64,000 nt of DNA from an uncultured Candidatus Saccharibacteria bacterium (GCA_964651655.1 CAZYVS010000002.1:29471-93470); one strand, 5' to 3'. Shown: positions 2,649-51,268, numbered from the stretch's first letter. The notes: generated by a model not told the origin, from the sequence alone. Program-made: numbers and translations.

Positions 2649-2932
2649 TGCAGGGTAGGGCACTTTTAGTTTATTGTAGGGTGTCGCACAATATATCTTT
2701 GCGACATTATGATCATCTCCAATAAGCTGAAACTGAACCACATTTATCACATTTATAATGTGCTATAGCATAAGTTAGATGTATCCCCTATCATGTATCA
2801 CACATCTTCACACTACAATTTAAAATCTAATTAAAATTTAAGTAGTAAAATTTTCTTATAAAAAATGACATTAAAAAAATACCCCCTCTCCCCCATTTTG
2901 ACCAATAGGGAAGTTTTAAGATTTTACCTGTG

Positions 2933-3847: not shown

Positions 3848-4013
3848 GTGGTTTCTGGGCATTCTACCACACAGGTCAATTCTCCCCTATTCTTTTATTT
3901 ATCCAAAAGGCCGGTCCACCATTTGAAAGTAAAGGTCATTAAAAGATAAGCCGGTAAATAAATGGGTATTAAAATGAAAAACAAAATTATTCGCAATGCT
4001 TTCATAAAAATTT

Positions 4014-4247
4014 TCATATAGATTGTCGAGTCGAGAACAATGCTAAAATCATTCGCCAAACATAGAGAGTGGGAATTTTCGCATAGGACCAGGTAACACT
4101 TAGTACGTCTTTTATGTAATTTATAGTATTTCTCCCCTGCTCTGAATTGGCCGCGTCAATAATAGACCAATTAAAAAAATATTTAAGGAGAGCTAGGGCG
4201 ATAACAACAAGTATCAACCAGCTGATAAAACCTTTACTTCTCGGCAT
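4014..4247 (-). CDS. Small hypothetical membrane protein
   Basis: 77-aa ORF with a hydrophobic N-terminus between the M23 peptidase gene and pyrB. Confidence 0.3.
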   Translation of the reverse strand: MPRSKGFISWLILVVIALALLKYFFNWSIIDAANSEQGRNTINYIKDVLSVTWSYAKIPTLYVWRMILALFSTRQSI

Positions 4248-4283
4248 AGTTATATTTTACCTCTCGACAAAGCTCGAGGCAAG

Positions 4284-13113: not shown

Positions 13114-13849
13114 AAATTGGGGTATTTACCGATTCGCTTTCTATCTCTAAATCTCCCCTACCTTCCTGCGTGACACGGATGGCACCACGTTTAACAAGTT
13201 CAAGCATCGCAAGAAAGCCAATGATTATTGAAACTTTTTTCTCATAAGTGAGCGCTCCTTTGGCGCCATGAAATTCTTTAAAGTTAAGTTTGCTTGTCTT
13301 GGTAATTTGTGCCGCGAGTTTTTTTATCATTTCTTCAAGACTTATAATTTTTTTGACTACCACTTGCGGCAGTGTTTCTTTCTTCGGCAATGATTCTATC
13401 ACTCTTTCGAGAGCCAGAAAAATATGTTCTGGGTCAGTTTTAGAATCCGGGGAGAAAATTATCATTTGATTTTTAGACGGCATTTTCTCAAAGATAATTC
13501 TTTTACCAAAAATATTTTTGAGAACCAGAGCTAGTTCCTTGACTCTGGCATAAACGGCGAGACGATTTTCCAAATCATGGATACTTTCTTCTTCCTCCTC
13601 TGTCAATCGAATCATCGGCAGGAGCGACCTGGATTTAATGAGCATCAGAGTTGAAGCCACAACAATAAATTCCGCCGACTCTCTTAACGGAAAATCTTCG
13701 TGTTCATCGATATATCGTATAAAATCGTCCGTCACTTGAGACAACGACACGTCATTCACAAAAAGTTTTCTTTTAGTCACCAGTTCAAGAAGAAGGTCCA
13801 GCGGACCTTCAAAAACCTCCGTTTTTACGGTATATGAGTTTCCTATCAC
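13106..13849 (-). CDS. scpA: Segregation and condensation protein A
   Basis: ScpA family (LDLLLELV...). Confidence 0.8.
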   Translation of the reverse strand: MIGNSYTVKTEVFEGPLDLLLELVTKRKLFVNDVSLSQVTDDFIRYIDEHEDFPLRESAEFIVVASTLMLIKSRSLLPMIRLTEEEEESIHDLENRLAVYARVKELALVLKNIFGKRIIFEKMPSKNQMIIFSPDSKTDPEHIFLALERVIESLPKKETLPQVVVKKIISLEEMIKKLAAQITKTSKLNFKEFHGAKGALTYEKKVSIIIGFLAMLELVKRGAIRVTQEGRGDLEIESESVNTPIYV

Positions 13850-13867
13850 CCCATCATTATAGCGTTT

Positions 13868-14452
13868 TCAGGTCTGATATCCAAGCAAAATATTAACTAT
13901 CTCGTCCCATGAATAAACTCTGCGAATAGGTGGTTTAACTTCACCTTGATTCCACGGCGCATCAAGGAGCAAGGCAGGTATACCGACACTAGCCACATCT
14001 TCCACATTATGCAGTGAATCGTCCACAAAAAATTCAATGCCTAAATTTTTACAAACTTCTCCCTTTGAACACTTTGGTCCATCTCCCTGAAAATGATTTG
14101 TAAAACGAACTCCGTCAAACATTTTTGGAAAATGTTTATCCAACCATTCTATTGTTCTGTTTTTCAATTCTTCAGGTTTAGCTGTAATTACATACAAATC
14201 GTGGTACCGTTTTAATTCCTTAATGCTTTCAACCGCTCCGTCTACTGGCAAAGCATTTAAATGTGCAAGGGAGGAGTAAAAATCAGACACTCTTTGTATT
14301 GCCTCTTCTCTTGTACAGCTCCACATTCCTTGTAGTTCATATGATTGTCTATGCCTCCTTTCGTGCTTTGTACCATAATTCATATTATGATAATGAAGAA
14401 GAATATCATTAAAATTTAACAACACATCATCAAGGTCAAAACCGATAGTCAT
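13868..14452 (-). CDS. 5'(3')-deoxyribonucleotidase-like HAD phosphatase
   Basis: N-terminal FDLDDVL (HAD motif I), NT5C-like. Confidence 0.6.
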   Translation of the reverse strand: MTIGFDLDDVLLNFNDILLHYHNMNYGTKHERRHRQSYELQGMWSCTREEAIQRVSDFYSSLAHLNALPVDGAVESIKELKRYHDLYVITAKPEELKNRTIEWLDKHFPKMFDGVRFTNHFQGDGPKCSKGEVCKNLGIEFFVDDSLHNVEDVASVGIPALLLDAPWNQGEVKPPIRRVYSWDEIVNILLGYQT

Positions 14453-15726
14453 GGGTTCAGTCTCTTAACGTCTCTTGGCAAATACGTGGCTTCGCGGACA
14501 TTTGGCAAGTCAATAATTTTCATAATAAAGCGACCTGGCCCAATGCCGGCCCCGCCATGCGGCGGACAGCCATAACGGAAGAAGTTTAAATAATCCTTCA
14601 GCAACTCAAGGTCCATATTTTTCTCTCTGGCCTGTTTTTCCAAAATTTCTACTCGGTGCTCGCGTTGAGCCAGAGTCGTGATTTCAATTCCTCGATAAAG
14701 CAAATCCGCTCTTCGACTTCTATCAGAATCCTCATCTAAACGCATATGGTAGAAAGCACTCTTGGATTTGTGATAATCAGTGATAAAGACAAATTCATGT
14801 TCGTGTTCTTTGAGAATATATTCCGAAATGGCCCGCTCTTCTTCCGGTGAAAGATCGTGCTCATCGGGCGAAGAAATACCAAGACTAGATAAAATCTTTT
14901 TTGTTTCCACTATTGTTATTCTTGGAAATGGTCGGGTTGGTATGGTGATATTTAAATCCGGAAAAGTTTTCAATAATTGTTCAAATCCACTGACAATCAT
15001 CCCCTCTTCTTCATCCATGACATCATAGTGGTCCTTGATGTAGGAAACCTCAAAATCCCAACCGGTAAATTCCGTAAGATGACGAGTGGTGAAAGACGGC
15101 TCGGCGCGAAACACGGGAGACACCATGAAAACCTTTTCGAAACCGGATGCCATAGCCATCTGCTTGTAAAACTGCGGTGACTGCGCCAGATACGCCTTGC
15201 GGTCGAAATAATTGACTTCAAAAACTTCCGCGCCAGATTCCGACGGTACAGACATCAGGGCCGGTGGATAGAGTTGGATGAAATTATTCTCGTCCCAATA
15301 TTTGCGCCAGCCCTTCTCAAATTCCGTCCAGACTTTGAAAATTTTTGCCTTCTCCGGTTTACGCAAATCAAGCCAACGATAATCAAAACGTATAGGCGCT
15401 TCCGTCTCCCCGCCCGAACGTGCCGAACCACGTTCGGTACGGGCGGGTTCTCCACTCTTAACCACAACCGGTATCGGTAATTCCGGTTCCGCCCGGCTCA
15501 ACACCTCAATCTTAATCGGATGCATTTCATGGCCACCGGGCGCCTGCGGAGCATCTATCATTTCCCCGGTCGCTCTGATAACCGACTCAAGTGTCAAATT
15601 CTTAGCGGCTTCAAATTCCGGATTATCCGTCGTCACCACCAGTTGAGTCAGGCCTTGTAAGTTACGAACAATAATAAAAATTATTTTCGATTGAACGCGC
15701 AAAGCATGTATAAACCCTTGAATCAT
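14449..15726 (-). CDS. aspS: Aspartyl-tRNA synthetase, archaeal/eukaryal type (class IIb)
   Basis: Motif 2 FRAEPSFTTRHLTEFTGWDFE matches the FRAEDSNTHRHLTEF type. Motif 3 is GGAGIGPGR. N-terminal OB fold; about 425 aa. Confidence 0.8.
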   Translation of the reverse strand: MIQGFIHALRVQSKIIFIIVRNLQGLTQLVVTTDNPEFEAAKNLTLESVIRATGEMIDAPQAPGGHEMHPIKIEVLSRAEPELPIPVVVKSGEPARTERGSARSGGETEAPIRFDYRWLDLRKPEKAKIFKVWTEFEKGWRKYWDENNFIQLYPPALMSVPSESGAEVFEVNYFDRKAYLAQSPQFYKQMAMASGFEKVFMVSPVFRAEPSFTTRHLTEFTGWDFEVSYIKDHYDVMDEEEGMIVSGFEQLLKTFPDLNITIPTRPFPRITIVETKKILSSLGISSPDEHDLSPEEERAISEYILKEHEHEFVFITDYHKSKSAFYHMRLDEDSDRSRRADLLYRGIEITTLAQREHRVEILEKQAREKNMDLELLKDYLNFFRYGCPPHGGAGIGPGRFIMKIIDLPNVREATYLPRDVKRLNP

Positions 15727-16712
15727 GATATTTTTAATCCAACTTTTTCTCTAATTATTTTCATTTTTTTCTCCGCCCTTTCTCGCGCGACTTGCCCGCC
15801 ATCCCGTAAAACTTCTAATACAATATTCCTATCTTTTTCCAATTGCTGTTTCTTCTCGCGCATAGGCCTGATGAAATTCTTAAGGTCTTCTATGAGCATC
15901 TCTTTCAATATTTTATATTTTCCTTTGTTTTCTTCATATAAATCATTGAGCGACTTTTTATCTTTAAGTAAGGCATGGATAGTATAAACGTTTTCCGGAC
16001 GATCACCTGATGAGTCAGTGACAATACTTATCACCGCCTTCTCTATCTCATCATCGCTCGCAAAAAGCGGAATAGTATTACCGTAACTTTTAGACATTTT
16101 TCTGCCATCCGTACCGCGCACCATCGCTGCTCCCTCCAAGATAAGCGGTTCCGGTAATTTAAAAGTCTCGCTTGCCCCGTCCTTGGCGGGGCCAAATATC
16201 CGATTGAATTTCTCTGCCGTATCGCGCGCAATTTCTACATGCTGTTTCTGGTCCTGTCCAACAGGCACCACATCGGCATCCTGAATAAGAATATCGGCGG
16301 CCATCAGCAATGGATAATCAAATAATCCGACGTTGGGTTCTTTATAGTTAGCTACGGCATCCTTATAAGCATGCGCCCGCATCAGATACGGCACAGTGGT
16401 CAAACAATTAAAAATCCAGCCGAGTTCGGTTACTTGAGGAACATCTGATTGAAGAAACAAAGTGGTTTTGTTTGGGTCTAATCCTATCGCAAGATATGTG
16501 GCGGCAACATCAAAAGTGTTTTCTTCTAAACCCTTCCTCTTTTCACCATCACTTGTTACCGCGTTGGTTAGAGCATGATAATTGGCTACAAAAACATAAC
16601 TCTGGTATTTATCTTGAAGCTCTACAAATTGCTTAAGAGCGCCAAAATAGTTACCTATGTGAGGTTTACCGGTTGGTTTTACTCCAGAGAGTAATATTTG
16701 CGTCGCCAACAT
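15723..16712 (-). CDS. trpS: Tryptophanyl-tRNA synthetase
   Basis: KPTGKPHIGNYFGAL (HIGH) and KMSKS motifs. Confidence 0.9.
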   Translation of the reverse strand: MLATQILLSGVKPTGKPHIGNYFGALKQFVELQDKYQSYVFVANYHALTNAVTSDGEKRKGLEENTFDVAATYLAIGLDPNKTTLFLQSDVPQVTELGWIFNCLTTVPYLMRAHAYKDAVANYKEPNVGLFDYPLLMAADILIQDADVVPVGQDQKQHVEIARDTAEKFNRIFGPAKDGASETFKLPEPLILEGAAMVRGTDGRKMSKSYGNTIPLFASDDEIEKAVISIVTDSSGDRPENVYTIHALLKDKKSLNDLYEENKGKYKILKEMLIEDLKNFIRPMREKKQQLEKDRNIVLEVLRDGGQVARERAEKKMKIIREKVGLKIS

Positions 16713-16727
16713 ATTAGCCCTATGGTA

Positions 16728-18362
16728 TCAGGAATTGACCGGTAATTCCATGAAAAAAGTGGAACCTTTATTTATTCCGGCGGACTCGGCCCAGACACGA
16801 CCATGATGCGCCTCTACAACATCTTTAACAAAAGAAAGACCGAAACCGGTAGAGTTTATATTTACTTTAAGTGAATTGTTATCCCGTCCGCCTTTAGTGA
16901 AAAGTTTAGGTTTGAGTTCATCCGAGATGCCTACTCCGGTATCCATAATCTTCAATAGAACTTTATCTTTGACTTTTGATATTTGAATTTTAACTTCCCC
17001 CTTCGGCGTATAACGAATAGAATTATCAATTAAATTTCTCACGGCTTGTTCCAGTTGAGCCTTGTCACCGTGCATATTATAGTCGCCCTCGTCCACATTA
17101 AATTTAAAAGATAACCCTTTTTCTTCCGCCACTCCTTTTTGCTTCTCTACCACATTCTGAACAAGCATACTCATATCAAACGACTGCATTTCATATTTAT
17201 AAGTCCCCTTCTCAATATTGGACGCGTTGAGAAAATCAGTCACGAAATCAACCCCTTCGGTCAAAGACTTAAATCCTTCATTTATCATCGGTTTAGCGGG
17301 CTCTGATATCGGTCCGTATTCCGGTTCGGTCAAGAGTTCGGAGAAAACGTTTCTTGCCTTGGCCAAATAACCCTTAATTTGATGATTGATAATATGTATC
17401 AAATTCGCCTGCCCCTCGTTAGCCACCTGTAACTCCCCCGCCAATTTTTCAATCTTTTCCTTCGCCTCAATTTCCCGTTTGACACTTCGTACAAGTTGGA
17501 TACCAAGCACTAAAATAATTATTGAAGTCAGAGAGACAATAATTCTTACATTTTCAATAGACCTCACAGCAAGAATTGAAACTACCAATATAAGTAGGGC
17601 ACCAACTAAAGCCTGCGTGCCAATCAACTTAATATTAAATGCCTTAAATTTGACTGTTGCATATACAAGAAACGTCACAAAGATAGGCATTCCAAATAAT
17701 CCAAATTGAGCTACTACCCAGTTGTCGTAATAACTACCGATTAGGTTTCCGTATATAAAAAACAAAAGAAATAGAGATATCCCCAAGCCCATCATTATAG
17801 TTTCCTTCCTTTTTACCGTATCATTTGATTTTCTATAAGTTTCCATTGAAACCACACTTATAACGAGAAGGAAAAGAGCTTCTAATATATAGCTATAATA
17901 TTTAGCAACACCATTTTCAATAGCCGTACAATCATAAAGATAAACTCCGATTAGATTATAATTAGTTGGTATTAAAATGATGAATGGCAACACGCCAATG
18001 AGTATTAAAATGTTTATCCAAAAGGAAGGGACTTTCCCTCTTTGGTAAGAGTAAATAAGATAAAACGAAAATAAAAACACTAAGATCTCAAGAAGTATTT
18101 GCAGAGACCAAAAGAAAATCGTGATATCTGGTCTATTTGTCGCCCATAAAATTAAATCGAAAATGTTCCATAGCGCAAAAAAACCAAAAATGGCTACAAG
18201 GGAATAAGTGCGAATATCGCGTTGGGCATTCAAAAAAACAAAAACACCCCAAAATAGTACTATTAAAAGAGCGGGAATATGAGAGTAATACAATAAGGAC
18301 GGAATATTGCTGGAATACATCCAAAAGTAAGTGGCGCCTTCCCAAGGGCAAAGAATTTCCAT
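16728..18362 (-). CDS. Sensor histidine kinase with a polytopic N-terminal sensor domain
   Basis: About 7 TM segments. C-terminal HATPase_c (NLIDNSIRYTPKGE...DTGVGI). No cognate response regulator adjacent. Confidence 0.75.
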   Translation of the reverse strand: MEILCPWEGATYFWMYSSNIPSLLYYSHIPALLIVLFWGVFVFLNAQRDIRTYSLVAIFGFFALWNIFDLILWATNRPDITIFFWSLQILLEILVFLFSFYLIYSYQRGKVPSFWINILILIGVLPFIILIPTNYNLIGVYLYDCTAIENGVAKYYSYILEALFLLVISVVSMETYRKSNDTVKRKETIMMGLGISLFLLFFIYGNLIGSYYDNWVVAQFGLFGMPIFVTFLVYATVKFKAFNIKLIGTQALVGALLILVVSILAVRSIENVRIIVSLTSIIILVLGIQLVRSVKREIEAKEKIEKLAGELQVANEGQANLIHIINHQIKGYLAKARNVFSELLTEPEYGPISEPAKPMINEGFKSLTEGVDFVTDFLNASNIEKGTYKYEMQSFDMSMLVQNVVEKQKGVAEEKGLSFKFNVDEGDYNMHGDKAQLEQAVRNLIDNSIRYTPKGEVKIQISKVKDKVLLKIMDTGVGISDELKPKLFTKGGRDNNSLKVNINSTGFGLSFVKDVVEAHHGRVWAESAGINKGSTFFMELPVNS

Positions 18363-18440
18363 ACGCCATTAATTATATTGGGGTTCGTTAGAATAGTCTA
18401 GTATATGTATAATTACTCAAAAATCTGCTATAATTTCGGT

Positions 18441-19481
18441 ATGCGAAAATCAAAAACAACAAAGAAATTTCTATCTAGGCCGGTAGAACATATAGATATT
18501 AAAAAACTTGATCTCACGAAGACAGTAAAAGCCATGTCTAAAATGTCCTTTTCTGCGAGAGATGCAGCCAACGCAGCAGAAATGTATGCTCGAATGGTTA
18601 AAGATAATGATTGCGTTAATATTTTAACACTTGCTGGTAGTACCAGTGCAGCTGGTTGTATGCAAATTTATACAGACATGGTAAGACACAAAATGATTGA
18701 TGTGGTCGTAGCCACGGGTGCAAGTATTGTAGATATGGATTTTTTTGAAGCATTAGGATTTAAACATTACCAAGGCAGCCCCATTGTCGACGACAAAATG
18801 TTACGTAGTTTATATATCGACAGAATTTATGACACGTACATCAATGAAAACGATCTGCAGAAATGCGATGCGGCAATTATGGAAATTGCTAACGGCCTGA
18901 AAACACATCCTTATTCATCACAAGAATTTATAAGAGAAATGGGCAGATATTTGACAAAACGTTCAAAAAAAGACGACTCTCTTATACAAGCCGCGTTCGA
19001 AATGGGTGTTCCAATATTTTGCCCGGCGTTCTCAGACAGCAGTGCCGGTTTTGGTCTCGTAATGCATCAAGTAAAAAATCCGAGAGACCATGTTTCTATT
19101 GATTCGGTCAAAGATTTCTATCAGCTGACCCAAATAAAAATCAAAGCTAAAAATACAGGTTTGCTCATGATAGGTGGAGGAGTGCCCAAAAACTTCGCTC
19201 AAGATACTGTGGTGTGCGCTGAAGTGTTGGGACACAATGTTCCCATGCATAAGTACGCTATACAAATAACTGTTGCCGATGTCAGAGATGGCGCATGTTC
19301 TAGTTCCACCTTAAGAGAAGCTAACTCCTGGGGTAAGGTTGATAGCTTATCAGAACAAATGGTGTATGCGGAAGCGACTACAGTATTACCAATGATTGCC
19401 AGTTATGTATATCACCAAAAAGATTGGAAAAGGCGAACAAAAAAAGATTTTAACTCTGTATTAATAAAATTGTCCAGTTAA
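18441..19481 (+). CDS. Deoxyhypusine synthase-like (DHS family) protein
   Basis: VVATGASIVDMDFFEALGFKHYQG matches the DHS family core. An extended -10 (TGCTATAAT) sits 6 nt before the ATG (leaderless). Confidence 0.6.
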   Translation: MRKSKTTKKFLSRPVEHIDIKKLDLTKTVKAMSKMSFSARDAANAAEMYARMVKDNDCVNILTLAGSTSAAGCMQIYTDMVRHKMIDVVVATGASIVDMDFFEALGFKHYQGSPIVDDKMLRSLYIDRIYDTYINENDLQKCDAAIMEIANGLKTHPYSSQEFIREMGRYLTKRSKKDDSLIQAAFEMGVPIFCPAFSDSSAGFGLVMHQVKNPRDHVSIDSVKDFYQLTQIKIKAKNTGLLMIGGGVPKNFAQDTVVCAEVLGHNVPMHKYAIQITVADVRDGACSSSTLREANSWGKVDSLSEQMVYAEATTVLPMIASYVYHQKDWKRRTKKDFNSVLIKLSS

Positions 19482-19489
19482 ATTTAAAT

Positions 19490-19615
19490 TTAATAGGGCT
19501 CTTCTTCGGAAACAATAGTAAAGTCCTTGGCTATGAAAGCCCTCTGATAAGTCAAATATATTGAAAAAATAGTAACTAAAAATATCAGTACAAAAACTAC
19601 AGTTGTTGATTTCAT
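19490..19615 (-). CDS. Possible 41-aa single-TM peptide
   Basis: MKSTTVVFVLIFLVTIFSIYLTY...; short ORF downstream of the transporter gene. Confidence 0.2.
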   Translation of the reverse strand: MKSTTVVFVLIFLVTIFSIYLTYQRAFIAKDFTIVSEEEPY

Positions 19616-19626
19616 ATAGCTATAAA

Positions 19627-20547
19627 TTAATAGTAGACGAATATGCTTCCAATTGCAATGACCGCAATTGCGAGAATTTTATGTACTAAATGTTGACCAG
19701 ATATTTTTTCAGTAGCTATTTTAGGAAAATATCTAGTGAGAAATATTCCCATAAGAAAAACAAATGCCGGTTGATATGCGTCAACCAGTAACACAAGAGC
19801 AATGGGTGCTAACAAAATGGCATAACTAAAAGAGAGAGTGGCTATTGTTTGCAAGAATTCATTAAACACATTGATGGATATAAATCTTTGACCATTTTCT
19901 TTTATTGTATTTATAAATCCGACCCTAAATTTTTTAATCAATAACAAGGTGGTGATTCCAAATACTCCATACCCAACCAGATTCCAGAATATGGACACTT
20001 TATATGAACCCTCTGATAAGGTTGTACTTTTGAAAATAACATCATTGAGCGCCAGAAGTAAACTCGCGGCAATCATTAGCAAGGTTGGTTTAAGTTTAAA
20101 ACGTAGACCAGCCTCCTCTTCAAACTCAAAAGATAAAATTGTGGCCCCTAGTATAACCACTAGACCTGCCAATATTTTAATTATTTCAATATTTTCTTTT
20201 AATATAGCCACGCCCAAGAAATAGCCAAAGATCGGGATCAACTGAAACATAGGCACAATTACCGATGTTTCTTCCTCTTCTAAAGCATAAAAATAAAATA
20301 CAAGAGAAAGAGCGCTCATTATTCCTGTTACAATTAAAATAAAAACATGCTCACTTGATATTGATATTAGATTACTCCTAATAAAAATTAAGAAAAATAC
20401 AACAACAATCAACGGGAAGAGAGTTGAAAACAAAACAAGAGATCCAACACCACCATGTTTAGAAAATTTATCTAAAAGAAATTTATCCGTATGATGAATA
20501 ATACTACACACAAACGGACTTATAAGCGCTATAAAAAACCAGTTCAT
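19627..20547 (-). CDS. EamA/DMT-superfamily transporter
   Basis: About 10 TM helices; duplicated EamA-like halves. Confidence 0.6.
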   Translation of the reverse strand: MNWFFIALISPFVCSIIHHTDKFLLDKFSKHGGVGSLVLFSTLFPLIVVVFFLIFIRSNLISISSEHVFILIVTGIMSALSLVFYFYALEEEETSVIVPMFQLIPIFGYFLGVAILKENIEIIKILAGLVVILGATILSFEFEEEAGLRFKLKPTLLMIAASLLLALNDVIFKSTTLSEGSYKVSIFWNLVGYGVFGITTLLLIKKFRVGFINTIKENGQRFISINVFNEFLQTIATLSFSYAILLAPIALVLLVDAYQPAFVFLMGIFLTRYFPKIATEKISGQHLVHKILAIAVIAIGSIFVYY

Positions 20548-20597
20548 TGTGTGATTATACGTTATATCTTATTGGAAAAAATCTCAATCTACAACTT

Positions 20598-20648
20598 CAA
20601 TAAAAATAAAAACAGGGGTAACCATCATATAAAACGATGGTTACCCCT
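20598..20648 (-). terminator. Rho-independent terminator after the lipoprotein gene
   Basis: 13-bp stem AGGGGTAACCATC/GATGGTTACCCCT followed on the minus strand by GTTTTTATTTTTATT. Confidence 0.6.
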
Positions 20649-20666
20649 CTTGGCCTCGGTTATTGT

Positions 20667-21152
20667 TTAGTTAACGCCGGCGGTTTTTTGCGCGCCGCAG
20701 TTATCTGCATGGTAGCCAGACGCCTGACTACCGCACACTCTCGTCTCCTCGAGAGTGTGCATGATATACCGACCACGGGGGTCAAACTGAACCATCAGCG
20801 TCTGAGATACCTTCTCCTGTTGAGTAAAGGCTCCCATAAGTCCAAACCATCCCACCGCGTGTTCCGAGCGATGTTGACTACCATCGTTGTAGGCATAGAC
20901 TGCTACACTTCCCCCGTCACTCATGGTGGTGGTCGTTACCGGAGACTTCTGCAGAAGCAGACTGACCTCGTTCTTAGTCATTCCTGACCTCAATCGGGTC
21001 AACTGATCACCGTCGATCTTTTTCGGTTTGGAAGCAAGAGAACTTTCCATTCCGGCGATGCCAGTCTCTATACCAGAAATGGCAAGTGACATGGCAAGTT
21101 GAGCACAACCCGGGAGAAAAACCGCCAATAGAACAAGAAGCAAAATATACAT
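20667..21152 (-). CDS. Lipoprotein with SmpA/OmlA (BamE)-like domain; higher GC than the surroundings
   Basis: Lipobox LPGC in the signal peptide. LTRLRSGMTKNEVSLLLQKSP resembles the SmpA/OmlA motif. Strong SD (AAAGGAGAG) upstream. Confidence 0.5.
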   Translation of the reverse strand: MYILLLVLLAVFLPGCAQLAMSLAISGIETGIAGMESSLASKPKKIDGDQLTRLRSGMTKNEVSLLLQKSPVTTTTMSDGGSVAVYAYNDGSQHRSEHAVGWFGLMGAFTQQEKVSQTLMVQFDPRGRYIMHTLEETRVCGSQASGYHADNCGAQKTAGVN

Positions 21153-21321
21153 AACACTCTCCTTTCACGGTTGGTGTAAAAAAACAGACTTTAAGAAACA
21201 TTGTCTAACATATATTATGCACAAATTATTCTATAAATCAATATGTGCAATACGGAGGCAACGCCTCCGTTACGTAATTGAGCAATCACAGAAATTAGAT
21301 AGTCCCGTGGCTTATCAAAAT

Positions 21322-21720
21322 TTAATCGTTAGCTATAGCTAAAACTCTCTTAAGGTAATTACCCTTTAAGTGGTGATCACCCTTAACTTCTAAATATTCA
21401 GCTCTTAATTTTTTGGCCATTTGTTTTGCATATTTTTTCATATGTGTATGTTCTCGATTACCATTTAAGACAAAGATATGACCCTTAGGTTGTTTATATC
21501 TTTGAACTATAGGTGGCGGAGAACATAGAATTAGTTTTTTTATAGGAGACTTATATGCTATCAAATAAGCTAAAACAGCTCCAATAGAAAACCCTATCAA
21601 GACAGAATCTTTAGGTAATTTAGGTAAATTAAAAACATCATCAATAGTAAGATGAAGATAGTACACATATTTAGGGAGTTTATATTTCTTCTCTCCCAAG
21701 CCGGGAATAATGTAAATCAT
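21322..21720 (-). CDS. Alpha/beta-hydrolase-like fragment (probably truncated)
   Basis: GFSIGA (GxSxG) and a C-terminal DHH. The likely start MIYIIPG sits directly after a terminator hairpin. Confidence 0.35.
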   Translation of the reverse strand: MIYIIPGLGEKKYKLPKYVYYLHLTIDDVFNLPKLPKDSVLIGFSIGAVLAYLIAYKSPIKKLILCSPPPIVQRYKQPKGHIFVLNGNREHTHMKKYAKQMAKKLRAEYLEVKGDHHLKGNYLKRVLAIAND

Positions 21721-21724
21721 ATTT

Positions 21725-21760
21725 GTAAAGAAAAGGAGGGGCTTTGTAGAGCCCCTCCCT
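21725..21760 (-). terminator. Terminator hairpin after the DUF397-like gene
   Basis: GGAGGGGC-N8-GCCCCTCC followed on the minus strand by TTTTCTTT. Confidence 0.5.
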
Positions 21761-21766
21761 TCCGCC

Positions 21767-21988
21767 TCACGTGAGACGTATGTCGACAGGGCCAATGGGG
21801 TTAAATTCTCCTTTCTTTACCCCATTAAGGAACGCTTGCCATTCATTGTTGTTGAAATGAAGAGTTGGACCATTAGGATCTTTGGAAGATCTAACAGCCA
21901 CGCCATTTTCATTGCGAGCAACCGCCACGCACCAGCAGCCCCATTTTTGGCTGTCATCTGCAACGTGGAAATCCTTATCTTCGAACAT
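21767..21988 (-). CDS. DUF397-like small protein
   Basis: WGCWCVAVA...VAVRSSKDPNGPTLHFNNNEWQAFLNGVKKGEF matches the DUF397 pattern (actinobacterial family). SD AGGAGGTGA lies 9 nt before the ATG. Confidence 0.6.
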   Translation of the reverse strand: MFEDKDFHVADDSQKWGCWCVAVARNENGVAVRSSKDPNGPTLHFNNNEWQAFLNGVKKGEFNPIGPVDIRLT

Positions 21989-22129
21989 ATTTTCTCACCT
22001 CCTTTCTGTTCTGAAGTCTAATCTTAATTTATACGAAACAGCTTAGATGTCAAGCCCACTTTTTCTTGAGATTAAAATAGCGTATATTCAATGAAACTTT
22101 ACCGAGGGGAGGACTCTACTACACAAGCA

Positions 22130-22235
22130 ATATACAAGCAAGAACGGTTCTTGCTTAAACTGTATTACATAATGAAATACGGAGGCATTGCCTCCGTTAC
22201 ACCAATGAAATACAGGGGGTGTTGCCCCTGTTATA
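22130..22235. repeat. Cluster of three short hairpin repeats (plus a fourth related copy at 21252-21270)
   Basis: AAGCAAGAAC/GTTCTTGCTT, ACGGAGGC-att-GCCTCCGT and ACAGGGGG-tgtt-GCCCCTGT share flanks (aatgaaatac ... gtta) and have compensatory stem changes. Confidence 0.5.
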
Positions 22236-22238
22236 TAA

Positions 22239-22568
22239 TTACTTTTTATCTAGCGATTTCAAATATTCAACAATTCCCTGTCGAATAAACCATGTGAAAT
22301 AAGTACTGAAATAAAAAAGCTCATTTTTTCTCTCCATCATCAGCTCTGCTCTTTCTTTGTACTTTTTTAAAGCAAAATCAAAATGAGCCCAACCTGCTTC
22401 AATTAATTTTTTCTTTGATACTCTCCTTGCCTTTTTATTTTTATAATATGCCTCGGCTATAGCTTCCACTAATGGTTTCAGATATTCTTTAAATTCATCT
22501 TTACTCTGCTCATCTTGCAAAGCATTTTCAATCATTTCTAATTCTTTTTCAAATCTTTTTCCAAGCAT
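22239..22568 (-). pseudogene. Truncated sigma-70 family fragment (regions 1.2 to 2.2 only)
   Basis: LIEAG...FYFSTYFTWFIRQGI matches sigma-70 region 2.1/2.2 (FSTYATWWIRQAI). The ORF stops where the hairpin repeat cluster begins. Confidence 0.5.
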
Positions 22569-22637
22569 AATTTTTATTTTTTAAGGGGCTAGCGAGAAAA
22601 CTCGCTAGCCCCTTAGTCTTTAACCCACATGTAGGCG

Positions 22638-22820
22638 CTACTCGAGTGGATCTTTGCTGGTCTCGACGGCTTCGTTGACATAGTCTAGCTCTGCTTGATT
22701 CTCACCGGATGAACCGCGAGATTCAGCCTGTCCCCGCTCGACATCGCGACCAGCCTGTTCATTGCTCGGAGGGCCAAATATGTCACCAAAAAACTCACCA
22801 AAGAACGATTTGCCGCCCAT
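22638..22820 (-). CDS. Small hypothetical acidic protein (60 aa)
   Basis: MGGKSFFGEFFGDIFG.... SD AGGAGGTGA lies 8 nt before the ATG. The 5'UTR/promoter is near-identical to that of the DUF397-like gene. Confidence 0.45.
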   Translation of the reverse strand: MGGKSFFGEFFGDIFGPPSNEQAGRDVERGQAESRGSSGENQAELDYVNEAVETSKDPLE

Positions 22821-22911
22821 ATTTCTCACCTCCTTTCTATGCTAAAGTCCGACCACAATATAGTACAAGTAACACTCCCATGTCAATCGATCACATTTAA
22901 GAATTTTGTCG

Positions 22912-22949
22912 ATACGTTAATGTAATGCGGTCGCATTAAAGTAACGTAT
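22912..22949. promoter_or_regulatory. 38-bp palindromic operator-like element, copy A
   Basis: ATACGTTAATGTAATGCG-GT-CGCATTAAAGTAACGTAT. Related to the copies at 34594-34631 and 35227-35264. Confidence 0.5.
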
Positions 22950-22994
22950 GTCTATAAACACTATGTTTGTGTTATAGTAGCAACGTTATTGACA

Positions 22995-23067
22995 GGGCTC
23001 ATAGTAAAGTGGTATTACACGGCATTCGCATTGCCGAGTCCCGGGTTCAATCCCCGGTGAGTCCACC
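22995..23067 (+). tRNA. tRNA-Ala (anticodon CGC)
   Basis: Manual fold: acceptor GGGCTCA/TGAGTCC with G3:U70, D stem GTAA/TTAC, anticodon stem CGGCA/TGCCG, loop TTCGCAT, T arm CCGGG-TTCAATC-CCCGG, discriminator A. Confidence 0.85.
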
Positions 23068-23114
23068 GACAGAACCGTCGATGATAAAATGTTCTCCAAA
23101 GCGCATTAAGAACA

Positions 23115-23978
23115 TTATAATCCCAACTTCTTTAATTCTTCAACAAATTTATACGCCTCTTTGGAAAGTTTTTCCGGAATCTGCACGGCGATGCGAATAT
23201 AAAGATCGCCGCGACCTCTGGCGCTAGTGCCATGAGGCACGCCCCGGCCTTTCACCCGCAGAATACTGCCGTGCTTGGTACCGGCCGAAATCTTTAGAGT
23301 AATTTCTCCGTCAAGAGTATGAATGACTTTTTCCGCGCCGAGAAGCGCTTCGGTCAATTTGACATCCAAATCCATTATCAAATTGTATCCTTCCTTGCGC
23401 AGATAGGGATGTTTCCTGACATGCACTTTGACATAAAGATCGCCGGGCACACCGCCTTCAAGAATCTCGCCTTGACCGTTCAGACGGATCATTTGACCAT
23501 CATCAATGCCGGGCGGCACACCGATTGATACTTCTTTTTGTTTGACAAATTTTGAATTGATCACTACCTTTCTCTCCGCGCCGAAAATTGATTCTTGGAA
23601 AGAAAGTTCAATATCCACCGCAATGTCGCGTCCGCGCCTAACTCTGCGTCCACCAAAGATGCTTGAGAGTATATCTCCCAAGTCTCCTGTATCAAAACCG
23701 GCAGAGTTGAAACCGGAGAAATCAAAACCGAAACCAGATGGGTCGAATCCTGCTTGTCCCGAGCCTGTCGAAGGGCCCGCCCCGAACGTATCATATTGAG
23801 CGCGCTTCTTTTTATCCGAGAGCACGGCGTAGGCCTCGCTCGCCTCTTTAAACTTTGCTTCGTTACCGCCGGATTTGTCCGGATGATGAACATGCGCCAG
23901 TTTGCGGAAGGCTTTTTTTATTTCCTCCTCGCTCGCGTTCTTATTGACCCCTAATATTTTATAGTAATCTTTACTCAT
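23115..23978 (-). CDS. dnaJ: DnaJ-family co-chaperone (J domain plus G/F region, no zinc finger; CbpA-like)
   Basis: [32 protein letters not shown] domain, then a Gly/Phe-rich linker. Confidence 0.8.
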
Positions 23979-25879
23979 TATTTAGTTTCAGCGTCTTTGA
24001 TATCTGGATTTTCCGGCGGTTTTTGTTGTTGATCGTCAGTTGTTTGTTGTTTATTAAGATATTCTCCGATTTTTTGTATTTCTGTCGAAAGAGCTTCGGT
24101 GGCAGACTTGATCGAATCAATTGTACCACTCTCTTTTTCTTTCTTGAGCCCCGTTATTTTCTCGTTGATCAGAGTCTTGATATCGTCCGGCACATTGGCG
24201 TTGTCTTTCAGAGATTTCTCGGCGGTATAGATGAGTTGTTCTGCCATATTTTTCGCATCAACCAAATCTTTTTTTTTCTGATCTTCCGCGGCGTTGGCTT
24301 CCGCGTCCTTTTGCATCTTTTCAATTTCGCCCTTCGATAGACCGGAGCTGGCTTCTATTCTGATGGATTGTTCTTTGCCTGTAGTTTTATCTTTCGCCTT
24401 CACATTCAAGATACCATTGGCGTCAACGTCAAAGGTCACTTCTATCTGCGGCATACCGCGCGGCGCGGGCGGTATGCCATCCAGAATGAATCGGCCAAGC
24501 GATTTGTTGTCGGCGGCCATGGCTCGTTCGCCTTGGACAATATGAATTTCCACAGAAGTTTGACTGTCGGCCGCGGTTGAAAATATCTGCGATTTCGCCG
24601 AAGGAATGGTGGTATTTTTCTCAATCAACTTGGTGGCCACTCCACCCATGGTTTCAATACCAAGCGAAAGCGGAATGACATCAAGCAAAAGCACGTCCTT
24701 AACATCACCGGCCAAAATTCCTCCTTGAATGGCGGCGCCGAGAGCCACCACTTCATCCGGGTTAATAGACTTGTTTGGTTCTTTGCCAAAAAATTTCTTA
24801 ACTGATTCCACTATCGCCGGCATGCGCGTCTGACCTCCCACCAAAATCACTTCATGCAAATCGCCAACTTTAAAAGGAGACGCTCCCATAGCGCGCTTGG
24901 TAATTTCCATCGCTCGGCTTAGAAATTCATTAGAAAGTTCTTCAAGCTTGGCTCTGGAAAGTTTCAAAAGCAGATGTCTGGGGCCGGATGCATCTGAGGT
25001 AATAAAAGGTATGTTAATTTCAGTTTCTGTCGCCGTGGAGAGCTCGATCTTGGCTTTCTCCGCGGCCTCATCGAGTCTTTGGAGCGCCAAGGCATCCGTC
25101 CTAACGTCAATGCCGGACTCCTTTTTAAATTCTTCCGCGATATAATTGAGAACTTTTTGATCTATATCTTTGCCTCCCAAATGCGAATCGCCATCGGTTG
25201 ACTTTACTTCAACCACATCATCCCCCACTTCAAGGATTGAGATATCAAAGGTGCCGCCGCCAAAGTCAAAGACGGCAATTTTTTCATTCTTCTTTTTATT
25301 AAAACCGTAAGCCAGAGCGGCGGCGGTCGGCTCATTGATAATGCGCTTAACATCCAAGCCGGCAATCTGACCGGCATCTTTGGTGGCCTGACGTTGAGAG
25401 TCGTTAAAGTAAGCCGGCACGGTAATAATGGCTTCCGTAATTTTTTCGCCCAACTTGGTTTCGGCATCTGTTTTCAATTTTTGAAGAATCATGGCGGAAA
25501 TTTCTTCGGGACGATAATCCTTATCAGACATCTTCACCAACACTCCGCCGGTAACGCCGGCCTTGACTTCAAAGGGCACGGTAGCTTTATCTTTTTGAAC
25601 CGCCGGGTCGGAGAAAGTGTGGCCTATAAATCGTTTAATGCCAAAAATCGTGTTTTTAGGATTAGTGACGGCCTGACGCTTGGCTAAAAGCCCCACTAGA
25701 CGATCGCCTGTTTTAGACACCGCAACAATGGAAGGTGTGGTACGCGCCCCTTCGGCATTTTCTATAATTCTCGGCTGGCCCGCTTCCATCACCGCTACCG
25801 CGGAGTTTGTAGTGCCAAGATCAATACCAATTATTTTTGCCATATATTTATGTAAATTAATTTGTAATAAACGCCCCAA
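23978..25879 (-). CDS. dnaK: Hsp70 chaperone DnaK
   Basis: [18 protein letters not shown]; full-length Hsp70. Confidence 0.95.
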
Positions 25880-26396: not shown

Positions 26397-26795
26397 TTAA
26401 CGCTTACTCCACTTTGGGGCCTTGCGGGCTTTCTTGAGGCCGAATTTTCTGCGTTCTTTGGCGCGAGGGTCGCGTTTTAGAAATCCTTTAATCTTAAGCT
26501 TGGCACGCAGATCGGGATCAAAAGAAACAAGCGCTCGACCCAGACCATGCTTCAAGGCTTCAGCTTGCGAAGAAATACCCCCACCATTAAGTCTGGCCGT
26601 TACCTGGAACTTGTTTTCCGTGTTATCAAAAATAGATAAAACGGTTCTTTGGAGCATCGGTGTAGGAAAATATTTCTCCAAGTCTTTGCCATTTACAGAG
26701 ATGGAAACTTTTGAAGCGGGAGTCATACGTACTCTGGCCACAGAGGTCTTTCGTCTGCCAACCGCTTCGGTATATTTTTCTTTTTTTTCCATCAT
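26397..26795 (-). CDS. rpsI: Ribosomal protein S9
   Basis: GGGISSQAEALKHGLGRAL; C-terminal ...KARKAPKWSKR. Confidence 0.9.
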   Translation of the reverse strand: MMEKKEKYTEAVGRRKTSVARVRMTPASKVSISVNGKDLEKYFPTPMLQRTVLSIFDNTENKFQVTARLNGGGISSQAEALKHGLGRALVSFDPDLRAKLKIKGFLKRDPRAKERRKFGLKKARKAPKWSKR

Positions 26796-28557: not shown

Positions 28558-29163
28558 CTATCTGTTATAGAATTCAATCACCACCCCGAGATCAAAGATA
28601 TTTTCCTTTGCTGCATAGACCGCTTGGCCCAAGACGGTGACTTGTCTCTTCTCCGGATCCGCTTTCAACCACACAGGCATAGCGATAGTTTTCATTCTCT
28701 CTTCAACCTCTCCAAAAAGAGGACTTGAAGCGGAACCGGCGCGCAGACCGACAACATCGCCTTTTGAGAGAAGGATAGAGGGTATGGTGACACGGGCATT
28801 ATTGACTATGATATGTCCATGGCTGGCGGCTTGACGGGCCTGCGCGCGTGTTTTGGCCAAACCGGAGCGATAGACGATATTATCCAACCGGCTCTCCAGA
28901 ATACTAAAAAGTTTTTGAATCGGATCTGAAGCGCGTAAAGCTTTGGCGACGTAGGTTCTAAATTGAGCTTCGCTTAAGCCATAGCTGTAACGAGTTTTTT
29001 GTTTTTCTATCAGTTCCTGGCCGAATTCACTTTTTGGCTTTCGGTGACCTTTATCATTTTTCTCCTTGCGCGCCAATGAAAGCACATACTTCGGGGTTTG
29101 AGTTTTTTCAAAAACTGGAGCCCCCAGACGCCTGGCTATTTTATATTTTGGTCCTATTCGCAT
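28558..29163 (-). CDS. rpsD: Ribosomal protein S4
   Basis: S4 family sequence. Confidence 0.9.
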   Translation of the reverse strand: MRIGPKYKIARRLGAPVFEKTQTPKYVLSLARKEKNDKGHRKPKSEFGQELIEKQKTRYSYGLSEAQFRTYVAKALRASDPIQKLFSILESRLDNIVYRSGLAKTRAQARQAASHGHIIVNNARVTIPSILLSKGDVVGLRAGSASSPLFGEVEERMKTIAMPVWLKADPEKRQVTVLGQAVYAAKENIFDLGVVIEFYNR

Positions 29164-34593: not shown

Positions 34594-34631
34594 ATACGTT
34601 ACTTTTATGCGACCGCATTATTTTAACGTAT
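34594..34631. promoter_or_regulatory. 38-bp palindromic operator-like element, copy B (upstream of the ATP-cone nuclease gene)
   Basis: ATACGTTACTTTTATGCG-AC-CGCATTATTTTAACGTAT. Confidence 0.5.
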
Positions 34632-34661: not shown

Positions 34662-35228
34662 TTAAATTAATCCGAACTCTTCTCGCAGATGTTTATCGTT
34701 TTCCAGTTCATCAACAATCATGTATAAAAGATACTTACCTATTCTGAAATCAGTTTTGAGTAGAGTAATAATGTCTTCACAATCATAAGGATATATCCAA
34801 ACACTGTTTTGAAGACGTCGAATACCGGTCTGTCTAAAGAGTATGGTTAAATCATCTCTTGCCTTCTTTTTCTTTTCTGGAATATCAAAAATAATCACTC
34901 TCCATTTCTTATCCCATCTTTTGGGTTTTTGCAATTGGAAATCAGCGAATTGCCAACGGCGCAAGAGACTTTCCCCTTTTAAAGTCAGTTGATATCTCTT
35001 GCCGTCGTAGAAAAGTAATCCACGCTTAACAAGTTTACTGGCCGAGGAACCAATATACTCTTTTTGTCTCTTGTTTGGAAGAATGCCAAGCTTGGCAAGC
35101 GCTCCTATGACATTTGGAGCAACCAGAGCCACACTCAACATGCCCGCGACTGCCACAGTTTGCAAAATTACGTGTTGCAAATTTTTACGCTTTGATTTCT
35201 TACGGCTTTTATTCTCTAATTTACCCAT
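34662..35228 (-). CDS. wHTH plus Cas2/VapD-like fold protein (PaaX-like architecture); putative regulator
   Basis: The C-terminal half WRVIIFDIPEKKKKARDDLTILFRQTGIRRLQNSVWIYP resembles Cas2 or the PaaX C-terminus. The N-terminal half is wHTH-like. The gene is flanked by palindromic elements. Confidence 0.5.
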   Translation of the reverse strand: MGKLENKSRKKSKRKNLQHVILQTVAVAGMLSVALVAPNVIGALAKLGILPNKRQKEYIGSSASKLVKRGLLFYDGKRYQLTLKGESLLRRWQFADFQLQKPKRWDKKWRVIIFDIPEKKKKARDDLTILFRQTGIRRLQNSVWIYPYDCEDIITLLKTDFRIGKYLLYMIVDELENDKHLREEFGLI

Positions 35229-35264
35229 ACGTCACTTTTATGCGACCGCTTTATTATAACGTAT
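35227..35264. promoter_or_regulatory. 38-bp palindromic operator-like element, copy C (abuts the regulator's start codon and contains TATAAT)
   Basis: ATACGTCACTTTTATGCG-AC-CGCTTTATTATAACGTAT. Confidence 0.5.
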
Positions 35265-51040: not shown

Positions 51041-51116
51041 TGGTGGACCGTGGGAGATTCGAACTCCCGACCTCCACATTGCAAATGTGGCGCTCTACCA
51101 ACTAAGCTAACGGCCC
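51041..51116 (-). tRNA. tRNA-Ala (anticodon TGC), with CCA encoded
   Basis: Reverse complement: GGGCCGT-TA-GCTTAGTTGGTAGAGC-G-CCACA-TTTGCAA-TGTGG-AGGTC-GGGAG-TTCGAAT-CTCCC-ACGGTCC-A-CCA, with G3:U70. Confidence 0.85.
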
Positions 51117-51194
51117 ACCGCAATGCTCGATAATTTTCAATTCGCAATAATACTAGACAAACCACCTAAAATCAATCAAAATAATGAAAAACTT

Positions 51195-51267: not shown

Positions 51268-51268
51268 C

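Follow-up and report, generated by a model that had tools for sequence, protein, structure and literature searches.

A recurring module of two bicistronic cassettes in a variable region at the dnaJ/Trp-Tyr-type synthetase junction of a Zambryskibacteria-type genome

Introduction

In this study, we examined a segment of about 2.4 kb (positions 20550-22990) in a 64,000-nucleotide stretch of DNA from an uncultured Candidatus Saccharibacteria bacterium (CAZYVS010000002.1:29471-93470), hereafter the window, where a few genes of odd composition are packed between an EamA/DMT transporter gene (19627-20547) and a gene for tRNA-Ala(cgc). The locus raises the question of whether these genes are the debris of a foreign element or a set that the lineage keeps. 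A first-pass annotation, made from the sequence alone, had taken the former position and described a higher-GC, horizontally acquired islet of decayed and foreign-looking genes abutting a tRNA gene as its integration site. We observed that the segment is the right part of an integrase-free variable region at the dnaJ/Trp-Tyr-type synthetase junction of Zambryskibacteria-type genomes of the Candidate Phyla Radiation (CPR), and that two bicistronic cassettes at its core (21322-22886) form a conserved module that has apparently not been described before. CPR bacteria, or Patescibacteria, have small genomes and few known regulators, hence a module whose content is conserved across divergent lineages is noteworthy.

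Design of the two cassettes

Five open reading frames (ORFs), all on the minus strand, lie between the EamA/DMT gene and tRNA-Ala(cgc), with dnaJ-dnaK-grpE past the tRNA gene on the opposite side. The annotation had listed four items and passed over the ORF of a 60-aa small protein. Four of the ORFs make up the two cassettes, with the following parts:

22821-22886, minus strand: promoter and leader of cassette A, TTGACA-18-TATATT at 22886-22857, with the 13-nt Shine-Dalgarno (SD) sequence AGAAAGGAGGTGA within 22822-22838
22638-22820, minus strand: gene 1 of cassette A, small acidic protein of 60 aa, pI 4.2, GC 0.53
22582-22615, minus strand: intercistronic hairpin of cassette A, perfect 15 bp, -33.5 kcal/mol (72-nt stretch folded), without a U-tract, followed by the A-rich, SD-less leader of gene 2
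22239-22568, minus strand: gene 2 of cassette A, 109-aa sigma domain-2-like protein, regions 1.2-2.3, GC 0.30
22135-22231, minus strand: behind the 109-aa gene, a tandem array of three terminator-like hairpins, with the central one at 22179-22197
21989-22053, minus strand: promoter and leader of cassette B, TTGACA-16-TAAATT at 22053-22026, with the identical 17-nt SD block at 21991-22007
21767-21988, minus strand: gene 1 of cassette B, DUF397 (BldB-family) protein of 73 aa, GC 0.46
21732-21761, minus strand: hairpin between the DUF397 and hydrolase genes, GC-rich with a U-tract, -28.5 kcal/mol (50-nt stretch folded), the hydrolase ATG following 8 nt past the U-tract
21322-21720, minus strand: gene 2 of cassette B, minimal alpha/beta-hydrolase-like protein of 132 aa, GC 0.31
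21252-21270, minus strand: terminator-like hairpin ACGGAGGCGTTGCCTCCGT after the hydrolase gene

Both cassettes thus follow one design, in which a consensus sigma-70-type promoter and an unstructured leader with a 13-nt SD precede a GC-richer gene 1, a hairpin, an AT-rich and SD-less gene 2, and a terminator. The leader of cassette B duplicates that of cassette A over 41 nt at 78% identity, and the 17-mer AGAAAGGAGGTGAGAAA occurs exactly twice against 0.02 expected, in agreement with the duplicated promoter and 5' untranslated region that had been annotated. Leader duplication was also noticed inside other genomes, namely over 49 nt at 78% in locus L086 and over 27 nt in L108, with leader sequences that differ between genomes. 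The cassette A promoter and leader are 85% identical to 12053-12124 of L006, a locus from one of the closest relatives. To judge from these sequences, the near-duplicate leaders suggest co-regulation or gene conversion. The SD AGAAAGGAGGTGA would be a 13-nt complement of the canonical 16S rRNA 3' end, the host's own rRNA lying outside the window.

On folding, both leaders were less structured than shuffled controls, and an Rfam search returned three tRNAs only and hence no riboswitch or leader of a known kind; for these two reasons, we dropped the idea of a structured regulatory RNA. Every gene of the segment is followed by a strong hairpin, as the annotation had stated, with folding z-scores of -5.8 to -6.7 in four of the five regions and -2.8 after the hydrolase gene. 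The hairpin repeats that it had reported were likewise recovered, since ATACGGAGGCAnnGCCTCCGTTA is found at both 21252-21270 and 22179-22197 against none expected. A hairpin separates gene 1 from gene 2 in all lineages folded, with differing sequence; equivalents of the intercistronic hairpin of cassette A were detected in L086, L091, L098 and L108, and equivalents of the DUF397-hydrolase hairpin in L086, L108, L114 and L115. Start-stop overlaps of the DUF397 and hydrolase genes are annotated in L086 and L115, and we set these aside as probably mis-called starts, as a hairpin intervenes and the homologous domain starts past it.

Recurrence of the module in divergent lineages

About 13 independent lineages of the 109-aa family were recognised from the locus look-up of one homologue together with a profile scan of metagenome contigs. 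The small acidic gene lies directly upstream of the 109-aa gene, on the same strand, in 10 of these 13, and a multi-transmembrane histidine kinase gene is found no more than 5 kb from the 109-aa gene in 5 of them. The DUF397 gene followed by the hydrolase gene was obtained from six lineages (the window, L086, L104, L108, L114 and L115). The two pairs stand at most 3 kb apart in four lineages, each with its own arrangement:

Window: small protein, 109-aa protein, DUF397, hydrolase
L086 group: the order of the window plus an intervening gene on the opposite strand
L108 group: DUF397, hydrolase, then small protein, 109-aa protein
L104: the two pairs divergent

The whole module is bracketed in L108 by a direct repeat of 116 nt (93%), and a 165-nt direct repeat in L086 brackets the unit that L094 has tandemly duplicated. 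Two small/109-aa pairs were seen in L091, at 2687-3258 and 7754-8324, which are old paralogues of about 32% identity, and in L094, at 3774-4339 and 6172-6737, which are an identical tandem duplication.

The corresponding place in L006 holds the promoter and leader of cassette A, followed by a 20-codon ORF with a hairpin, a prolyl-oligopeptidase-like gene (by sequence) and what is left of the 109-aa gene, 27 aa of its C-terminus. Since these remnants stand at the corresponding place, cassette A appears ancestral there and later disrupted or lost rather than recently imported, and they point to recombination among repeated regulatory sequences.

The window belongs to a metagenome-assembled genome (MAG) of a groundwater Candidatus Zambryskibacteria bacterium. 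Proteins 100% identical to those of the window, in matching gene order, were found in the public MAG GCA_016185455.1, contig JACPNM010000011.1, and in four Logan assemblies. The MAG contig (L001) ends 118 bp past DUF397, within the hydrolase gene, and several Logan contigs (L002-L005) begin inside the small gene or stop inside the hydrolase gene; repeats or strain variation could account for these breaks.

A family of sigma domain-2-like proteins and its small acidic neighbour

The annotation had read the 109-aa gene as a sigma-70 fragment ending after region 2.2. The resemblance is real, and the idea of a fragment did not stand, as homologues of 97-130 aa are intact across a family of 20 sequences. 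The protein ends just past region 2.3 and lacks region 4. A single sequence reaches sigma factors at an E-value of about 0.5 across the motif FSTYFTWFIRQ, while a 12-sequence profile aligns positions 8-100 with regions 1.2-2.3 of Thermus/Taq sigma-A (E 0.004), and a 20-sequence profile run against PDB gives sigma factors as 59 of its 60 best matches (top E 2.5e-4). The sigma factor family PHROG 351 is matched at E 1.5e-4. The AlphaFold2 model has five helices and a pLDDT of 89, and its top Foldseek matches are nearly all sigma domain 2, examples being the Legionella RpoS region 1.2-2 fragment (5h6x, TM-scores 0.65/0.74) and domain 2 of M. tuberculosis SigA. Pfam Sigma70_r2, which the annotation had proposed as a check, is matched, below threshold, by only 4 of the 20 family members, the lowest E being 0.029. 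The protein combines the helical fold of sigma domain 2 with a counterpart of the sigma-70 family's region 2.3 motif, FSTYATWWIRQ, and residues F87, Y90, F91, W93 and Q97 (the region 2.3 aromatics and glutamine) are invariant in the family. It belongs to a stable family of free-standing sigma domain-2-like proteins and not a broken gene. The features of a functional sigma factor, namely the region 2.2 contacts and region 4, were not found in it.

The small protein returned no match in Pfam or PDB and belongs to no known family. Its relatives, of 50-67 aa with pI about 4.1, are disordered-looking and share an N-terminal MG-x-x-S-D-F-F-G and a central D-Y-x-x-E-A-x-E-T-G-x-D-P; the charge of the window copy is about -8.5. 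With synonymous sites saturated, dN/dS was estimated at 0.03 in the small gene, at 0.11 in the lipoprotein gene described below and at about 0.12 in the 109-aa gene, low values from which we conclude that selection maintains all three. The idea of a remnant from a phage or plasmid was unsupported, as a scan of viral contigs with the 109-aa family profile, a tblastn search of phage genomes with the 109-aa protein and a blastn search of plasmids with the segment all returned nothing.

DUF397 and a short hydrolase-like protein

The DUF397 call of the annotation was upheld by Pfam PF04149, which the protein matches at E 1.6e-12 with 47.8 bits, the cutoff being 24. An exhaustive search gave 1623 relatives at E<=1e-3, where a word-indexed search had returned the query alone. 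The closest relatives are CPR-type proteins at 59-52% identity, followed by Actinobacterial ones (Actinomadura) with similar scores. No XRE-DUF397 (WhiJ-BldB) pair is present, as no HTH_XRE match was found and the neighbours are the 109-aa protein and the hydrolase; related CPR loci also carry the hydrolase beside DUF397.

With respect to the hydrolase, which had been called truncated, its shortness was borne out, the product being shorter than all homologues (132 aa against 160-252 aa). By Pfam the window copy is sub-threshold (E 0.005-0.1), though a 252-aa homologue passes Abhydrolase_1 with 37.9 bits against 25.8. It displays the motif GFSIG and a C-terminal histidine, with an asparagine at the usual acid position (G-D/E) and a conserved glutamate two residues on. 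A loss of the acid-histidine segment, as a MAFFT alignment had it, was rejected, since a by-eye re-reading against L114 and L108 locates the lost stretches ahead of the nucleophile and directly behind it; for this reason the protein is not called inactive, and it may represent either a minimal or a damaged version.

A variable region between conserved flanks

The segment proved to be only the right-hand 2.4 kb of a longer gap, which spans 16713-23114. Its other features, and those at its borders, are as follows:

16713-23114: whole gap, between the stops of the Trp/Tyr-type class I synthetase gene (15723-16712; Pfam PF00579) and dnaJ (23115-23978; Pfam DnaJ), as placed by synteny in 80 loci
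16728-18362, minus strand: multi-transmembrane histidine kinase (HATPase_c, Pfam), in the gap of many relatives and not of all
18405-20547: left AT-rich part of the gap, without counterpart in relatives (0 of 80 loci)
18405-19481, plus strand: deoxyhypusine-synthase-like (DS) gene (Pfam), GC z -1.4
19490-19615, minus strand: ORF of a 41-aa transmembrane protein
19627-20547, minus strand: EamA/DMT transporter (Pfam), GC z -3.0
20614-21241, minus strand: lipoprotein cassette, promoter-like site 21241-21214, SD GAAAGGAG, coding sequence 20667-21152, canonical terminator 20648-20614
22912-22949: palindrome of 38 bp and candidate operator, ATACGTTA-N5-ATGCG-NN-CGCAT-N5-TAACGTAT, between tRNA-Ala and the small-protein promoter, with the 34-nt family copy at 22914-22947
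22995-23067, plus strand: tRNA-Ala(cgc) (ARAGORN, Rfam), 48 nt from the dnaJ stop, with the segment on its 5' side

The synteny set comprised 80 loci around DnaJ homologues, taken from species-representative genomes of relatives. They have one gene order in common, GrpE-DnaK-DnaJ-[gap]-Trp/Tyr-type class I synthetase-class II synthetase, which continues into the genes beyond, and the gap ranges from 7-10 bp (L032, L015, L050) to more than 9 kb with differing contents. The DS gene, EamA, DUF397, the small protein and an intact 109-aa gene were found in none of the 80 loci, family hidden Markov models included, and the hydrolase gene was likewise not found at their dnaJ junctions. In the nearest relatives, DNA homology to the window ends at about 23070 and restarts at about 17487. 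Conserved flanks with differing inserts are what a hot spot between core genes displays, and the locus is a long-lived variable junction, an ordinary kind of island. The comparison of synteny that the annotation had called for therefore bears out accessory, variable DNA and speaks against an insertion linked to the tRNA.

Several findings weigh on that link. No recombinase domain was detected among the ORFs of the gap (the histidine kinase, DS, 41-aa transmembrane, EamA, lipoprotein, hydrolase, DUF397, sigma-2-like and small-protein ORFs), and tRNA-Ala(cgc) has no exact match of at least 11 nt, on either strand, within 15000-24500, so that the annotation's own failure to find an integrase or a tRNA repeat was confirmed. 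tRNA-targeted elements sit 3' of the tRNA gene, whereas the segment lies 5' of it. The tRNA gene is itself variable content, since it stands beside dnaJ only in the three closest relatives among the 80 loci, L006, L012 and L068. Integration at the tRNA is largely refuted as a mechanism.

In those three relatives an AdoMet-decarboxylase-like gene, named from PF02675 in L118, lies between dnaJ and tRNA-Ala(cgc). The gene is located at 10861-11256 in L006, 10894-11280 in L012, 10420-10806 in L068 and 1947-2333 in L118, with none in the gap of the window, where the DS-like gene is found instead; as both are polyamine-related, a functional swap may have taken place. A transposase-like ORF of 353 aa in the gap of L068, the closest relative (13474-14535; insertion sequence (IS)/integrase-core type by sequence), is the sole mobility gene among the gaps read.

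The lipoprotein, which had been counted among the foreign genes, is a third, single-gene unit of similar style and native to this region. It has 161 aa, an LPGC lipobox and a GC of 0.51, and homologues of 53-81% identity, with matching promoter, SD and terminator, are dnaJ-proximal in close relatives. Both L012 and L118 carry it near dnaJ, in L118 in the order dnaJ-AdoMetDC-lipoprotein-transmembrane protein; L117 has the downstream genes in common, but dnaJ is not on its short contig. The suggested SmpA_OmlA (BamE) assignment falls short for the window copy (PF04355, 19.5 bits against a cutoff of 23.2), while four homologues at 58-66% identity carry precomputed PF04355, which is marked weak in L118.

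As annotated, a single copy of a palindromic family lies beside the tRNA gene. Two more copies of the 34-nt family occur in the window, at 34596-34629 and 35229-35262, against none expected, and flank a 188-aa gene (34662-35228, minus strand) whose product matches the PaaX central domain PF20803 at E 4e-18 and, weakly, a winged helix. From this layout, the PaaX-like product is likely an autoregulated repressor whose candidate operator is also found between tRNA-Ala and the small-protein promoter. L068 keeps the palindrome, as does L012, where it precedes the lipoprotein promoter, and within 1.56 Mb of loci it is restricted to these two and the window organism.

Composition and Shine-Dalgarno pattern

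The description of a higher-GC islet did not hold, as the segment has a GC of 0.399 against 0.420 for the window, and only the unusually AT-rich neighbouring 17.5-20.5 kb (0.347) lies below it. The segment rather alternates GC-richer genes (0.46-0.53) with a strong SD and AT-rich genes (0.30-0.31) without one. Relative to 55 genes outside the gap (mean 0.430, sd 0.034), the GC z-scores are +2.9 for the small protein, +2.3 for the lipoprotein and +1.0 for DUF397, and -3.7 for the 109-aa gene, -3.5 for the hydrolase and -3.0 for EamA. On these values (-3.5 and -3.7 against +1.0 to +2.9), the AT-rich genes are the stronger outliers, and alanine codon use is core-like in the GC-richer genes and not in the AT-rich ones. 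The GC contrast recurs in hosts with locus GC contents of 31-48%:

Small protein / 109-aa protein: gene 1 GC 0.42-0.53, gene 2 GC 0.23-0.35
DUF397 / hydrolase: gene 1 GC 0.45-0.59, gene 2 GC 0.27-0.42

Because it is kept in hosts of such different composition, the contrast is a family trait and not a sign of several separate acquisitions, and its use as a signal of acquisition was abandoned. It may reflect high expression of gene 1 and low expression of gene 2. It is of interest in itself that the cassettes keep a very regular layout for expression, and neighbouring genes a difference of 20 GC points, in hosts of 31-48% GC, and GC contrast together with a strong SD is an unreliable sign of foreign origin in these genomes.

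The GC-rich lipoprotein gene with a strong SD (GAAAGGAG) and the SD-less core were both correctly annotated. Among 63 genes of the window, a strong SD is almost confined to the lipoprotein, DUF397 and small-protein genes (GAAAGGAG(G)). Across the 80 loci, a long SD with start codon (GAAAGGAGG) was counted three times in the gap and three times outside, which are small numbers, and AAGGAGG with a start codon displays no enrichment in the gap (0.104 against 0.116 per kb outside). Many core genes have a CACTATAAATA-like (TATAAAT-like) box 0-10 nt 5' of the ATG and no SD, for example upstream of 6448-7593, 26397-26795, 28558-29163 and 46527-47123; this suggests that the mRNAs of the host are mostly leaderless or have very short leaders.

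Function of the module and rival explanations

Taken as a whole, the variable region with its core at 21322-22886, the shared cassette design and a partner-effector reading of the gene products is, with moderate confidence, our best explanation. The function of the module is probably regulatory. The design would make the product of gene 1 far more abundant than that of gene 2, and the duplicated leaders would co-regulate cassettes A and B. The gene 1 products are probable binding partners or inhibitors of the gene 2 effectors; DUF397/BldB proteins are non-DNA-binding and oligomerising, and the small protein is strongly acidic. The 109-aa protein retains the aromatic motif of region 2.3 and would most likely act on RNA polymerase or melted promoter DNA, where it could mimic sigma, compete with it or serve as a minimal specificity subunit. 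The contents of the gap would change by recombination among repeated regulatory sequences and between conserved flanks, not by integration at a tRNA site.

Several points weigh against this explanation. The predicted excess of gene 1 relative to gene 2 derives solely from signals in the sequence, and the hairpin after the small gene, having no U-tract, may serve as terminator or as stabiliser. The E-values for the sigma relation are modest, 2.5e-4 at best, and Pfam Sigma70_r2 (PF04542) gave no match at E<=1 for the 109-aa protein of the window. In region 2.2, AGW takes the place of the residues in contact with the beta' clamp helices, QEGN in the case of sigma-70; the AGW is without exception in the set labelled A2 and near-invariant in that labelled A3, so that RNA polymerase binding is not assured; no recurring neighbour with sigma region 4 or a helix-turn-helix was noticed near the 109-aa gene. 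The four-gene linkage is facultative, since the 109-aa gene occurs without the small gene in three lineages, and DUF397-hydrolase pairs occur without cassette A in a Paceibacteria MAG (L114) and in L115/L116. Most of the related loci are metagenome contigs of unverified taxonomy.

A more specific idea, which is possible if on the doubtful side, is that the small acidic and 109-aa proteins form an undescribed two-protein system of CPR bacteria that targets RNA polymerase, in which a free-standing sigma domain 2 with the promoter-melting motif retained would be restrained or delivered by an abundant acidic partner resembling region 1.1 in trans and would be co-regulated through the leaders with DUF397 and the hydrolase. 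Were this true, it would provide the first functional context of DUF397 outside Actinobacteria, and a 109-aa protein that binds RNA polymerase would be a cellular counterpart of the phage factors consisting of sigma region 2 only, and a handle on transcription control in unculturable organisms. T4 gp55, which has homology to sigma region 2 only, binds the beta' clamp helices and reads a -10-like element (PMC7892883). It is similar to the 109-aa protein in being small and all-helical and in lacking region 4. It differs in its extra helix-loop-helix, its sliding-clamp-binding tail, its phage origin and its work with gp33 and gp45, whereas the 109-aa family is chromosomal, has no viral matches, ends past region 2.3, lacks the conserved acidic clamp-helix contacts and has a small acidic partner. 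By this analogy, the 109-aa protein may act like gp55 or compete with sigma. In Bacillus subtilis, SigO and RsoA, described by MacLellan et al., reportedly divide sigma functions over two small adjacent gene products, and a split across two small adjacent genes is the likeness here. Both of those parts have recognisable sigma regions, including the DNA-binding region 4, whereas the partner in our case is a disordered-looking acidic protein of 50-67 aa without sigma similarity. SigO-RsoA is listed as a two-subunit sigma factor in PMC10141391.

The BldB-family DUF397 proteins are small, non-DNA-binding and oligomerising, and act within transcription-factor networks (PMC10294661). As in Streptomyces, where BldB/DUF397 occurs with WhiJ (XRE) and AbaA (HATPase_c) paralogues, we find a DUF397 domain in a small non-enzymatic protein within a small conserved cluster tied to transcription control (PMC10294661). 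Unlike in Streptomyces, no XRE/WhiJ gene is adjacent and the constant neighbour is a minimal alpha/beta hydrolase; and whereas XRE-DUF397 pairs have been considered Actinobacteria-specific (PMC2701414), the present host is a CPR bacterium of about 42% GC.

tRNA-linked islands and integrative elements present accessory genes of unusual composition beside a tRNA gene, and in this the segment resembles them. It would accordingly be read as a horizontally acquired islet, integrated at tRNA-Ala and decaying, its hydrolase truncated, its sigma gene reduced to a pseudogene fragment and its DUF397 of actinobacterial descent, and this reading would account for content that is missing from the 80 related genomes, for a composition that deviates from the core in both directions, for a hydrolase that is the shortest of its family, and for a public MAG contig that breaks within the segment; DUF397 has moreover been described as Actinobacteria-specific (PMC2701414), and an Actinomadura protein is among its top matches. 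We nonetheless consider it very unlikely. The integrase, a direct repeat of the 3' end of the tRNA and a position 3' of the tRNA are all absent, the genes being on the other side of a tRNA that varies among relatives. Purifying selection acts on the conserved family to which the supposed sigma fragment belongs, the four-gene module recurs with its GC pattern in divergent hosts, the L006 remnants imply ancestral presence, the lipoprotein is native to the region and no plasmid or phage matches were obtained. Of the genes described as decayed and foreign-looking, only the hydrolase appears shortened. Far more improbable still is an artefact of assembly or binning, in which a chimeric contig would have joined reads of different organisms into a GC mosaic. 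The abrupt GC switches every few hundred bases and the several assemblies that break inside the region are in keeping with it, but the same order and 100% identical proteins recur in the NCBI MAG and in four Logan assemblies that are independent and stem from different runs, and the alternating GC pattern is also seen in unrelated contigs that come from other sites.

The design of the cassettes, with two genes and an apparent inbuilt excess of gene 1, also recalls toxin-antitoxin (TA)-like or defence modules, selfish residents of the hot spot in which an abundant, labile acidic gene 1 product would neutralise a harmful gene 2 product, be it a transcription-blocking sigma mimic or a hydrolase. 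Patchy distribution, duplications and flanking repeats agree with this, as does the RelE/ParE-type pair, called from translated sequences, in the corresponding gap of L111, and XRE-DUF397 pairs have been predicted as TA systems (PMC2701414). That prediction, on the other hand, makes DUF397 the toxin and XRE the antitoxin, and in later work XRE-DUF397 pairs reportedly act as regulators (PMC10364602, PMC6262351). Neither partner has a DNA-binding antitoxin domain, no match to a type II TA or known defence family was found, PADLOC giving only weak and spurious matches of the 109-aa protein to Cas12a models (E 0.003-0.005), and no plasmid or phage copies were detected; the module has moreover long been resident at the dnaJ junction in several lineages. 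We regard a TA-like role as unlikely. The variable junction, which we favour, has a close parallel in hypervariable hot spots that lie without an integrase between core genes, such as the lmo0443-lmo0449 hot spot of Listeria monocytogenes, which holds stress survival islets (PMC5541211). Conserved housekeeping flanks and alternative inserts of varied size and content, mostly without mobility genes, are common to both, whereas the inserts here come from a limited stock of small cassettes that keeps recurring, its promoters, leaders and terminators being repeated, and the junction also has a tRNA gene, a candidate operator and, in L068, an IS-type transposase.

Other observations

The pair in the dnaJ-proximal gap of L111 (5417-5891) consists, by sequence, of a ribbon-helix-helix antitoxin-like and a RelE/ParE-type toxin-like gene, 2 kb from a small/109-aa pair. 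A family of multi-transmembrane proteins of 174-177 aa, without a Pfam match, recurs in the gaps of close relatives, sometimes in two copies (L012 11628-12161 and 13083-13616; L006 14488-15012; L068 14618-15145; 174-aa genes in L117/L118), each gene having its own TTGACA promoter and AAAGAAAGGAGGT leader. Elsewhere in the window, a single-gene unit of similar style was noticed at 57806-58240 (plus strand), between a gene for a 143-aa protein and uvrB, with TTGACG-17-TATCCT, the SD AGAAAGGAGG, a 104-aa ORF from 57880 (MSNEIVVVEP...) and, near 58210-58235, a terminator hairpin. At 49185-49571 (minus strand), a response-regulator receiver gene that stands alone (PF00072) has a GGAGG SD and the highest third-position GC of the window (0.60), and the genes of tRNA-Ala tgc and ggc are found at 51041-51268, divergent and 78 nt apart.

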